Shown in pieces: positions 37,465-40,441 of a stretch of 62,304 nt of DNA. Source of the stretch: an uncultured Alphaproteobacteria bacterium (lineage in GTDB: Bacteria > Pseudomonadota > Alphaproteobacteria > JAPULJ01); assembly GCA_964494065.1 (NCBI GenBank), contig CAZBRE010000005.1:1-62304 (forward strand), read 5' to 3'. The notes under the pieces are model-generated. The model was not told the DNA's origin. It did no database searches and saw only the letters and a list, made by a program, of their open reading frames with translations. Each line of letters begins with the position of its first letter. The stretch's first letter is position 1. The position numbers and the translations under genes are program-made.

Positions 37465-38490
37465 TCAGTTGAGCGCCGCGGCCCCGTGCGACCGAGACTT
37501 GGCCATGAGGCTCAGCAAGATGCCTTCGCGCAAGCCGCGGTCCGCAACACGCAGACGCGAAACTGGCCAGGTCCGCCAGATGGCATCAAGGATCGCGGCC
37601 CCGGCCACAACGAGATCGGCGCGCTCCGGGCCGATGCACGGCACGCCGGCTCGTTCGTCGTAGTTCATTTCGGCAAGCCGCTCGTTAATCTCCGCTGCCT
37701 CCGTGCGGCCCAGATACGCGCCGTCGATGAGGTTGCGCTCGTATCGGGCCAATCCCTGATTGACGCTGGCGAGTGTTGTCACGGTCCCGGACGTGCCCAG
37801 CATTTGAACATTTCCATCGGCCACCTTGCTGGCGATGTCATGGGCTGCCTCGAAATCCGCGAGCCTGTTCGTGACGTCGTCGATCATTTCCTCATAAACC
37901 GCACGGCCAATCCGATCGCCGCCGAAGCGTTCGGCGAGGTTTACGACACCGACCGGCAACGACAACGTGCCCAGTATCCCGCTATGTGCCTCGCCGTTCA
38001 CCTTTTCCAGATCGATCCAAATGAGCTCCGTGCTGCCGCCACCGATATCGAACACGAAACCGTAGCGCTCCGGTCCTTCCATTAGCGGCAGACACCCCGC
38101 AAGCGCCAAACGGGCCTCTTCATGGGTCGATATGATCTCAAGATCGATGCCGGTTTCGTTGCGCACCCGGGTGAGAAAGGCATCGCAGTTCTCCGCCCGC
38201 CGGCACGCCTCCGTGGCGACGTTGCGCGCCCGAATCACCGATCGGCGGCGCATCTTGCGGGCGCAGACCCGAAGCGCGTCGACGGTGCGCCGCACCGCCG
38301 CATCGTTGAGGCGGCCTGTTTTGGCAAGACCCTCGCCAAGGCGGACGATACGCGAAAAGGCATCGACAACCTTGAAGCCATCGGGCGTGGGCCGAGCAAC
38401 CAGCAAACGGCAATTATTGGTGCCGAGATCGAGCGCCGCGTAGGTCGGGCCACGCACCTCCTCGCCACCGCAATCGCCATTGCCCGTCAT
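37465..38490 (-). CDS. Ppx/GppA-family phosphatase
   Basis: ALDLGTNNCRLL, ATEACR, FDIGGGSTE, GTSGT, DRGLREG; start ATG 38490 inferred. Confidence 0.9.
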   Translation of the reverse strand: MTGNGDCGGEEVRGPTYAALDLGTNNCRLLVARPTPDGFKVVDAFSRIVRLGEGLAKTGRLNDAAVRRTVDALRVCARKMRRRSVIRARNVATEACRRAENCDAFLTRVRNETGIDLEIISTHEEARLALAGCLPLMEGPERYGFVFDIGGGSTELIWIDLEKVNGEAHSGILGTLSLPVGVVNLAERFGGDRIGRAVYEEMIDDVTNRLADFEAAHDIASKVADGNVQMLGTSGTVTTLASVNQGLARYERNLIDGAYLGRTEAAEINERLAEMNYDERAGVPCIGPERADLVVAGAAILDAIWRTWPVSRLRVADRGLREGILLSLMAKSRSHGAAALN

Positions 38491-38677
38491 TCCGGCGCCT
38501 CCTCCCACCCGATCGCACGGCAGTCCGAGGTCGGATGCCGCCGATGTTTCGAAACTATTGCAGGATCGGCGGAATTGCAATTTGGCCGGATGGCCCTAAA
38601 TTAGGTGCCATTGGCCGCCGGACAGGGCGCGGCCGATACCTGTCGATGCGACCGATCCGGCCCCGATCCGCCGGCGA

Positions 38678-38751
38678 TGGGGGATAGTTTAACGGTAGAA
38701 CGAGCGGCTCTGACCCGCTTAGTCCTGGTTCGAATCCAGGTCCCCCAGCCA
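38678..38751 (+). tRNA. tRNA-Gln (anticodon CTG)
   Basis: TGGGGGATAGTTTAACGGTAGAACGAGCGGCTCTGACCCGCTTAGTCCTGGTTCGAATCCAGGTCCCCCAGCCA. Confidence 0.96.
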
Positions 38752-38897: not shown

Positions 38898-40010
38898 ATG
38901 CGTATTTGGGCGATGGAACGGCGAGCGGGACGAAAAGACTGGATCGGTGTGCGTTGGGGCCTTCCCTGCTCGGCTCTCTTCCATTCGGCGATTATCGCGC
39001 TGGTGCTGTTCGCATTGCCGGAACCGCGCAAGCCGAGAGCGTTGCCAAAAGAAATTCCAGTCGAGGTCGTGCGCAAGGCACCGGAAAAGAAGCCCACAAG
39101 CAAGCCCAAGCAACAAGCCCGCAAGCCGGCACCAAAGCCCGAGGCGAAGAAGCCCGAGGCGAAGAAACCCGTTGAAAAGCAGGCACTGGCAAAGCCGCAG
39201 AAGCCATTGGCAAAAAAGCCGGCTCCAATTGAGAAGCCGACTCTGCCGCCGGAGAAAAAGGTCGCTGAAAAGAAGCCGCCTCCGATGAAGAAGCCGGCCT
39301 TGCCCCCCGAGGAAAAACCCGCTCAGAAGAAGCCGCCTCCGATGGAGAAGCCGGCCTTACCACCCGAGAAAAAAGTGACGGAAAAGAAGCCGCCGATCCT
39401 CAAGAAGGAGAAGCCCGCGCCTGAGCCGATGCCGGTGCCCGAATCATTGCGGAAGCGCGCCGAAATCAAGGAACCGATCGAGAAACTTCCGCCGGTGGCC
39501 AGACTGCGGCCGGAGCGCCCTGTTCCTGCGCCGCCTCTCACAGCTGACGGTCGGCCGGCTGAAAAGAAGACGGACGTGCCGGTTTTGCGGCCCAAGCCGG
39601 CGCCGCCGCCCAAACCCAAAATTGCCGCACTGAAACTGCCGCCGCAGGTTGGTGCGCTGCCCCGAACCAAGACCAAGCCGAAGAAGCTACTCGGGCGATG
39701 GGTTCTACAACCCGTAACGTTCGATATCCCAAATGAGTGCGGCACGCGGCGGATAACCGGGACGATGAACCTCGTCGCTCAGCGGGCAACCGAAAATGGC
39801 GGGGCAATCCTGTATCAGGCTGTCATTCGCACGACCAACCACTGGGAGCGGTGCCCGCCAAGGGAGACCGAATACCGTGGTTTCCTGGTGGTGGTTGGCA
39901 ACCGTGTCTATTTCGCTGACCGCGTAGGAAGCAGCAGCCCTGGATATGTGAGTGAGAAGGTAATTTCCCTACGTGGCGGTCTTGGCCAATCGATTTGGCA
40001 TCGCCGATAA
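38898..40010 (+). CDS. TonB/TolA-like membrane-anchored Pro/Lys-rich protein with a non-canonical C-terminal domain
   Basis: TM with SALFH (S-x3-H), IPVEVV, long P/K/E linker, C-terminal beta domain starting LLGRW with two Cys; start may be ATG 38913. Confidence 0.7.
   Translation: MRIWAMERRAGRKDWIGVRWGLPCSALFHSAIIALVLFALPEPRKPRALPKEIPVEVVRKAPEKKPTSKPKQQARKPAPKPEAKKPEAKKPVEKQALAKPQKPLAKKPAPIEKPTLPPEKKVAEKKPPPMKKPALPPEEKPAQKKPPPMEKPALPPEKKVTEKKPPILKKEKPAPEPMPVPESLRKRAEIKEPIEKLPPVARLRPERPVPAPPLTADGRPAEKKTDVPVLRPKPAPPPKPKIAALKLPPQVGALPRTKTKPKKLLGRWVLQPVTFDIPNECGTRRITGTMNLVAQRATENGGAILYQAVIRTTNHWERCPPRETEYRGFLVVVGNRVYFADRVGSSSPGYVSEKVISLRGGLGQSIWHRR
39225..39395 (+). repeat. Three tandem 57-bp (19-aa) coding repeats
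   Basis: PIEKPTLPPEKKVAEKKPP / PMKKPALPPEEKPAQKKPP / PMEKPALPPEKKVTEKKPP. Confidence 0.9.
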
Positions 40011-40012
40011 TC

Positions 40013-40441
40013 TCAAACGATCTCCACCAACTCGATATCAAAATTGAGGGTTTCGCCTGCCAACGGATGATTGGCGTCAAGGGTCACCGTCGTCTCATTG
40101 AAATCGACCACGGTGAAGCCAAAGGTCTGCCCGTCCTCGCGCTTTGCCTCGAGAACCAGGCCTTCGGCGAGCTGAATTTCCTGCGGGATCGCATTGCGCG
40201 GTACCGTATCGACGATTTGTGGATCGCGGTGGCCATAGGCCTGCTCCGGCGCCAACACGACCTTCTTTACCTCGCCCGGCGCCATCCCGATCACCGCGTT
40301 GTCAAATCCCGCGATCACCTGCTCGGCGCCGATGGTGAATTCCATCGGGTCCCGCCCATCGGTGCTGTCGAACCGGGCGCCGTCCTCCAATGTGCCGGTG
40401 AAGTTCACCCGCACGGTGTCGCCATTCTTGGCCGTGGTCAT
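40013..40441 (-). CDS. FKBP-type peptidyl-prolyl isomerase (SlyD/SlpA-like, no His-rich tail)
   Basis: GDTVRVNFTGTLEDGARFDST...AYG...LDANHPLAGETLNFDIEL. Confidence 0.92.
   Translation of the reverse strand: MTTAKNGDTVRVNFTGTLEDGARFDSTDGRDPMEFTIGAEQVIAGFDNAVIGMAPGEVKKVVLAPEQAYGHRDPQIVDTVPRNAIPQEIQLAEGLVLEAKREDGQTFGFTVVDFNETTVTLDANHPLAGETLNFDIELVEIV

Follow-up and report, generated by a model that had tools for sequence, protein, structure and literature searches.

An orphan alphaproteobacterial protein joins a TolA/TonB-type membrane anchor to a predicted lipocalin-like beta-barrel head

We analyzed a 62,304-nucleotide stretch of contig CAZBRE010000005.1 (here, the window), which belongs to an uncultured alphaproteobacterium represented by a 4.77-Mb metagenome-assembled genome (MAG) of 336 contigs, 92% complete and with a GC content of 66%. 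Within the window, we focused on an open reading frame (ORF) whose predicted product combines a short N-terminal membrane anchor, a long Pro/Lys-rich linker, and a C-terminal head domain; the coordinates of the gene, its parts, and its neighbors are collected in Table 1. An initial annotation, made from the sequence alone, had listed a transmembrane helix with an SxxxH motif, an IPVEVV strand, a linker with repeats, and a beta-rich C-terminal domain, and each of these elements was found in the ORF. The same annotation had placed the gene directly after tRNA-Gln, in agreement with the tRNA-Gln(CTG) that we located upstream. An RlmE/FtsJ gene also lies on the upstream, divergent side of the ORF, and on the downstream side a HerA-like ATPase gene follows beyond the FKBP-type isomerase gene. 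The likely true start of the protein is the second Met, M6 (position 38913); its closest relatives, P0003 and the member from genome G003, begin at the equivalent position.

Table 1. Positions in the window of the gene, the parts of its product, and the adjacent genes.
Feature	Coordinates	Strand	Remarks
Ppx/GppA gene	37465-38580	-	Upstream neighbor, divergent from the ORF
tRNA-Gln(CTG)	38678-38751		146 nt upstream of the ORF
Whole ORF	38898..40010	+	370 aa plus stop
N-terminal transmembrane helix of TolA/TonB domain-I type, residues 15-39	38940..39014	+	AlphaFold helix, hydropathy, hhalign
S25-A-L-F-H29, S-x3-H motor-docking motif	38970..38984	+	Conservation in homologues
I53-P-V-E-V-V-R59, D-box/'motor box' beta-strand motif	39054..39074	+	Proline-flanked, 12 residues past the transmembrane helix
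Pro/Lys-rich disordered linker, putatively periplasm-spanning, residues 60-262	39075..39683	+	Composition, pLDDT about 50
15-bp (5-aa, KPEAK) tandem repeat	39135..39171	+	2.5 copies; Tandem Repeats Finder (TRF)
57-bp (19-aa) tandem repeat, KPxLPPExKxxxKKPPxxx	39212..39394	+	3.2 copies; TRF score 219, 78% matches
C-terminal 108-aa all-beta head, residues 263-370	39684..40007	+	AlphaFold, Foldseek; no Pfam family
Span from Cys281 (39738-39740) to Cys319 (39852-39854)	39738..39854	+	Probable periplasmic disulfide, inferred
FKBP-type isomerase gene	40013-40441	-	Downstream neighbor, convergent with the ORF

To judge from sequence comparison, the gene is real, functional, and under purifying selection. 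Compared with a 92%-identical orthologue (L026), the ratio of nonsynonymous to synonymous substitution rates (dN/dS) is 0.15 and there are no indels, which points to a functional gene that selection maintains. Considered by part, the anchor has a dN/dS of 0.14 against the same orthologue, the linker 0.12, and the head 0.29. The full-length AlphaFold model divides the protein in the same way, with a helix at residues 15 to 39 (pLDDT about 80), an unstructured region at residues 40 to 262 (about 50), and a nine-strand beta domain at residues 266 to 369 (>90). Overall, we regard this architecture, together with the homology of the anchor described below, as well supported.

A short N-terminus rich in Arg and Lys, which we assign to the cytoplasm, precedes the transmembrane helix. 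The hydropathy maximum is a 19-mer at residues 22 to 40 (mean Kyte-Doolittle value, 2.16), and the SALFH sequence at residues 25 to 29 lies inside it. Within the SHLS motif, SxxxH is the part that contacts ExbB/TolQ (PMC10907165; PMC12204202). The IPVEVV sequence occupies residues 53 to 58, and the surrounding P50-KE-IPVEVVR-KAP62 matches the pattern and spacing of the D-box of TonB, a proline-flanked strand just past the helix that reads QPISVTMVTPAD in Escherichia coli and follows the pattern Phi-z-Phi-z-Phi-Phi-z (PMC10907165). The periplasmic dimer of ExbD has been shown structurally to clamp the D-box strand (PMC10907165), and 93% of TolA proteins have a similar strand, termed the 'motor box' (PMC12204202).

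Both motifs are conserved across the family. Among 17 full-length members that share 24 to 92% identity, H29, E56, C281, and C319 are invariant, and S25, A26, V55, and V58 occur in at least 90% of the sequences. The initial annotation had named loss of SxxxH among homologues as an observation that would speak against its reading; the motif is kept in this set of 17, with the Ser and the His, which in TonB is essential for contact with ExbB, conserved to the degrees just given. When the family was aligned with alphaproteobacterial TolA sequences, including the TolA of this genome, hhalign matched residues 18 to 65, a stretch that corresponds to the transmembrane helix plus the PVEIV strand (Prob 98.4%, E 5.8e-15), and bona fide TonB aligned over the same stretch (Prob 95.8%). 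To exclude linker composition as the driver of this score, we built a 49-column profile of the anchor only and compared it with all 50,012 stop-to-stop ORFs of the genome. The sole significant match other than the protein itself was the genome's TolA (E 2.3e-4), in an alignment that runs from the helix to the VVVEIL strand, and this TolA carries the same S-x3-H motif in the form SALMH. Based on these profile comparisons, we consider the N-terminal 48 residues a homologue of TolA domain I together with the motor box, or D-box.

The linker between the anchor and the head comprises 27% Pro and 23% Lys, has a net charge of +33, and lacks secondary structure in the AlphaFold model. The initial annotation described about 230 aa of Pro/Lys linker with three 19-aa repeats; the linker and its repeats are as described, and the measured length is shorter, at 203 aa. 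Variation in repeat number among strains had also been suggested as something to look for. For the 57-bp repeat we found none: the copy number is identical in the 92%-identical orthologue, and contigs from four salt-marsh or soil runs have no indels in this repeat, with the limit that contigs can hide rare variants. The lone sign of an indel anywhere in the gene came from one salt-marsh run (X4), in which a backward joint from 39171 to 39135 over the 15-bp KPEAK repeat hints at an extra copy of that repeat in some strains.

We modeled the head separately with AlphaFold (residues 256 to 370, 32-row alignment), and the resulting model is confident (pLDDT 92.9, pTM 0.83) and all-beta, with nine consecutive strands and no helices. 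In a Foldseek search of the PDB, even the best matches score weakly (E 5e-3 to 0.5, TMq 0.45 to 0.59), and they point to small barrels of the lipocalin/calycin type. The top neighbor is the periplasmic domain of ToxS (E 5e-3, prob 1.0); the others include the annelid erythrocruorin linker-chain barrel (TMq 0.57 to 0.59), CpeS lyase, insect milk lipocalins, japanin, apoM, beta-lactoglobulin, and VtrC. The model therefore suggests, in terms of fold class alone, an up-and-down beta-barrel like that of lipocalins and calycins, a fold with eight to ten antiparallel strands. Both C281 and C319 are invariant in 23 C-terminal domain sequences, and the model places them in loops at the same end of neighboring strands. 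Two invariant Cys residues in this arrangement fit a periplasmic location and a disulfide, which we consider probable on the strength of the model.

Established structures show TonB_C and TolA-III to be mixed alpha/beta folds, and the initial annotation had stated that the C-terminal domain of this protein lacks the TonB-C/TolA-III pattern. All comparisons agree with that statement. Scans of the 370-aa protein against Pfam and NCBIfam returned no match, a Pfam scan of 32 members one by one (E <= 5) returned no recurrent family, no TonB_C, and no vWA, a sequence search of the PDB with the C-terminal domain profile returned no match at E <= 10, and hhalign gave a Prob of 0.1% for the head against TolA. 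The structural comparison that the initial annotation had proposed for this domain likewise yielded an all-beta model with weak lipocalin-like neighbors, and no TonB or TolA structure is among the 50 Foldseek matches listed. No paralogue of the head was found within the genome.

These results bear directly on the possibility that the protein is a TonB or TolA that has diverged so far in its C-terminal domain as to escape recognition. The order of the domains is alike and the anchor is homologous, as such a reading would predict; against it, the head is confidently all-beta, with nine strands and no helices, and matches neither TolA by hhalign nor TonB_C in any of the 32 members. In addition, tolQRAB already supplies the genome with a canonical TolA, and no TonB-dependent receptors are encoded. 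We therefore treat a diverged TonB or TolA as essentially excluded and, from the sequence comparisons and the model taken together, conclude that the head is not a recognizable variant of TonB_C or TolA-III. A recognizable TonB-C variant was the other finding that the initial annotation had named as refuting its reading, and of these two checks neither spoke against it.

The structural neighbors raise a different possibility, namely that the protein binds a ligand or acts as a sensor in the periplasm like ToxS or VtrC, in which a transmembrane anchor carries a lipocalin-like barrel for small hydrophobic molecules, and that its own TolA-like anchor is ancestral or vestigial and disused. ToxS and VtrC are lipocalin-like bile-acid sensors (PMC10624426, PMC9214523). 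Among solved structures, their periplasmic domains (PDB 8u2f and 5kew) come closest in fold to the head, with ToxS ranked first and VtrC lower down, and both proteins are anchored in the inner membrane. The structural matches are, however, weak (identity 11 to 12%, TMq about 0.5), and we read the similarity of the modeled head to ToxS and VtrC as one of fold class only, not as evidence of homology. ToxS and VtrC also differ in having another type of anchor and no Pro-rich arm of 200 aa, and no gene for a ToxR/VtrA-like partner, a membrane transcription factor, accompanies the present gene in any genomic context. An invariant His in the transmembrane helix and an invariant D-box would be hard to explain if neither were used. 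Given this balance, a ToxS-like sensor seems to us improbable.

Members of the window's own clade (P0001, P0003, and P0004) differ from the rest of the family at three places in the head. At two spots that are otherwise well conserved they have 'SPG/NLG' where the family has 'D(R/H)G' and 'RGGLG' in place of the family's '(R/E)DxYG', and they carry an insertion of 5 to 6 residues in the hairpin that follows strand 3. Judging by these substitutions, the binding specificity of the head may have shifted in this clade.

The family is small. Searched exhaustively with HMMER, a set of 1.84 billion representative proteins yielded the head in 23 clusters at E <= 1e-3, and a profile search of 5.8 billion proteins recovered 14 strong full-length members, all of them annotated as 'hypothetical' or unnamed. 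Homologues reach down to about 25% identity, and the relatives with a named source are MAGs labeled 'Alphaproteobacteria bacterium' or 'Candidatus Odyssella sp.' A contig profile search that used a distant subgroup of the family added four MAG loci. We rejected one weak match to the head, P0024 (1054 aa), as a low-complexity artefact. Among 401 genomes sampled across the class, the head is present in four: the genome analyzed here, G003, G175, and G243. The gene was not found in two genomes of the same genus, G001 (81% complete) and G002 (71% complete), nor did either give any DNA match to the 4-kb neighborhood (ppx, FKBP, herA); because both genomes are incomplete and neither matches the neighborhood, absence of the gene from them is uninformative. 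The sequence of the window itself recurs in many salt-marsh metagenomes.

Three clades of the family occupy three unrelated gene contexts. In the window's clade, the gene lies between ppx and the FKBP gene, followed by cytochromes c. In the clade labeled 'Odyssella', at four loci (L018:6-2085, L019:3384-5508, L021:5233-7327, and L024:3335-5498), the gene overlaps a downstream EgtB-like gene (DinB_2 plus FGE-sulfatase) by about 30 nt, and an EgtD-like histidine methyltransferase gene follows; this arrangement suggests possible co-transcription with ergothioneine synthesis genes. In G243 (L037:5109-7533) and G175 (L038:1732-6643), which come from two further families of Alphaproteobacteria, the gene directly precedes glcE in glycolate-oxidase-like glcD/glcE/glcF regions. 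The G175 member (L038:3044-4018, on contig G175:C27) keeps the transmembrane helix, with SLAVH, and IPVEIV; in the stretch from the stop of the upstream glcD to the helix, however, it offers no ATG, GTG, or TTG. It may use a rare start codon or reflect an assembly error. None of the three contexts encodes an envelope partner, and the target of the protein cannot be read from synteny.

This distribution is what might be expected if the protein docked on TolQR without transmitting force, as a passive tether or regulator. Its anchor would then recruit the head to sites where TolQR acts (for example, the division site), or would adjust Tol-Pal activity by competing with TolA. The homology of the anchor to TolA fits such a role equally well, no dedicated motor, receptor, or target gene lies nearby in any context, and a rare, patchy gene is expected of an accessory modulator. 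However, the D-box strand, the proposed handle for force, is conserved as strictly as the His, and recruitment alone needs no such strand; in addition, every member retains the long, stiff, Pro-rich arm. We judge docking without force unlikely, and rank it first among the alternatives to force transduction, ahead of coupling to another stator, a ToxS-like sensor, and a diverged TonB, in that order.

The initial annotation had noted that no exbB/exbD, tolQR, or receptor gene lies near the ORF, and this holds for the whole contig: the genome has five MotA/ExbB-family genes and one ExbD/TolR gene, and all are on other contigs. In this genome we detected no TonB_C domain and no TonB-dependent receptor barrel. 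The only ExbD-family gene of the genome, tolR, lies in tolQ-tolR-tolA-tolB beside ybgC and ruvABC on contig C61, in a cluster that includes the canonical TolA. Contig C12 carries a MotA-MotB pair, and contig C33 (L005:1192-3186, C33:5306-7300) carries a MotA-like gene (319 aa) followed by a gene for an OmpA-family coiled-coil protein (343 aa). Contig C22 (L004:876-2265, C22:34110-35499, minus strand) carries an ExbB-like gene of 266 aa (MotA_ExbB E 6e-7) and, downstream of it, genes for a 200-aa protein with an Asp-bearing transmembrane helix (VVFRDMIMLALLGF) and for a 174-aa membrane protein, neither of which matches Pfam. The fifth gene, on contig C142 (L002:1111-1887, C142:1779-2555, plus strand), is a MotA/ExbB-like gene of 258 aa in an FHA/PP2C cluster. 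Judged from its gene content, this appears to be a free-living alphaproteobacterial lineage that lacks a Ton system.

We made three further observations on these loci and their relatives. Downstream of the pair on C33, C33:7313-7660 encodes a small secreted protein of 115 aa with two Cys residues, no Pfam match, and no detectable similarity to the head. By eye, the same-strand neighbors on C142 are a vWA-transmembrane-FHA protein, two FHA-type proteins, and a PP2C-type phosphatase; Pfam was run on the MotA/ExbB-like gene only. The two same-genus genomes each contain one ExbD/TolR gene and no TonB_C.

Given that the D-box is a ligand of ExbD/TolR-fold domains and that the only gene of this type in the genome is tolR, TolQR is the most economical motor for the protein, and from gene content we consider it the most likely one. 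A transducer that serves some other stator is the competing case, and the leading candidate is the C22 system, which looks like an orphan stator with an unrecognized ExbD-like subunit to judge by its sequence. Two of the five MotA/ExbB-family genes lack a known partner or output, and three of the four carriers of the head have the 200-aa C22 partner, compared with 54 of the 401 genomes sampled across the class (hypergeometric P = 0.008, uncorrected for phylogeny). Yet the C22 system also occurs in 51 genomes without the lipocalin-headed family, is absent from the carrier G003, and is not adjacent to the gene; we therefore rejected it as a specific partner. In addition, the domains that D-boxes are known to bind have the ExbD/TolR fold, and the ExbD model gave no match to the C22 partner. 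Coupling to another stator is thus a case to which we assign little probability. As for the other carriers, the only ExbD/TolR-type protein of G243 is TolR, G003 has an extra ExbD-ExbD-TonB cluster on a small contig of a bin with 7% contamination, and G175 has several Ton systems.

Taken together, these comparisons lead us to propose that the protein probably represents a new and rare kind of envelope arm driven by a proton motor. It would be anchored in the inner membrane and would span the periplasm on a chassis of the TolA/TonB kind. The N-terminal helix, with Ser25 and His29, would dock on the outside of a pentamer of the MotA/ExbB/TolQ type, and the periplasmic domains of an ExbD/TolR dimer would capture the IPVEVVR strand just beyond the membrane. 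From there, the Pro/Lys arm of approximately 200 residues would extend toward the outer membrane and present at its tip a disulfide-bonded, lipocalin-like beta-barrel, which would replace the TonB_C/TolA-III head and bind a partner (a protein, lipid, or wall component). Coupling to a stator and transduction of force, most likely through TolQR, is a part of this proposal that we infer with moderate confidence.

If TolQR is the motor, it would serve two arms, TolA and the lipocalin-headed protein. More tentatively, we suggest that TolQR may be a power source shared by the two arms, not a motor reserved for Tol-Pal, and that the barrel head may use the force at the outer membrane on a hydrophobic cargo or partner. 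Candidates would be a lipid, a lipoprotein, or a wall component, which might be extracted, delivered, or held; this fuller version is possible, and we offer it as a good deal less secure than coupling itself.

Several observations weigh against force transduction through TolQR and should be set beside the evidence for it. No motor gene lies within 8 kb of the gene at any of the eight loci examined, and no operon links the gene to TolQR. The Leu and the second Ser of the SHLS motif are off their canonical spacing in the protein; read from its sequence, the genome's own TolA likewise lacks the canonical spacing of these two residues. The MotA/ExbB-like genes on C22 and C142 have no characterized partners, and because the MAG is 92% complete, absences from it are not absolute. 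G175, and perhaps G003, have Ton systems, which means that a link to Ton-less genomes is not general to the family. Finally, the Foldseek matches of the head are weak (E >= 5e-3).

The protein shares with TolA the N-terminal transmembrane helix with S-x3-H, the (I/V)(P/V)VE(I/V)(V/L) strand a dozen residues on, and a Lys/Pro-rich region like domain II; unlike TolA, it has no TolA-III head, the domain with which TolA binds TolB, its gene lies outside tolQRAB-pal, and its head is all-beta with a Cys pair. With TonB it shares the SxxxH anchor, the D-box, and the proline-rich arm, whereas it lacks TonB_C (PF03544), and its genome lacks ExbBD beyond TolQR and TonB-dependent receptors. Since its C-terminal domain and its operon context fit neither, the protein is a member of neither TolA nor TonB.

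The closest parallel is the set of vWA-headed 'motor-driven force transducers' proposed from structure prediction (Williams-Jones et al. 2025, Mol Biol Evol 42:msaf138, PMC12204202), so the idea of a replaced head is not without precedent. Those proteins likewise have a transmembrane helix of the SHLS type, a motor box, a disordered linker, and a head unrelated to that of TonB or TolA. The two groups differ in the head itself, which here is a predicted lipocalin-like barrel of about 105 aa rather than a vWA domain, in genomic setting, because the vWA-headed transducers sit beside tolQ/tolR-like and TPR genes whereas the present gene is an orphan, and in host range, which is mainly PVC or Bacteroidota for the vWA-headed proteins and Alphaproteobacteria, as judged by MAG names, for the lipocalin-headed ones. 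Our literature search found no paper that links a lipocalin-like head to a TolA/TonB anchor.

To our knowledge, TolA and TonB were long the only known Gram-negative routes that carry inner-membrane proton-motive energy over the periplasm; the vWA-headed arms joined them in 2025 on computational grounds. The lipocalin-headed family adds a third, structurally unrelated head on the same chassis, in the form of an alphaproteobacterial orphan gene, and it is small and tractable, with a soluble head of 108 aa and an anchor of 65 aa. At least two carrier genomes have no detected Ton system and, among stators of the ExbD/TolR type, yielded TolQR alone. Should the coupling prove real, then a single stator can drive several outputs, and the anchor together with the D-box forms an exchangeable 'plug'. 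Such coupling would further suggest an energized process at the outer envelope of these bacteria, and if TolQR is indeed shared by TolA and the barrel-headed arm, that process would be a function dependent on the proton-motive force and distinct from both nutrient import and the mobilization of Pal.

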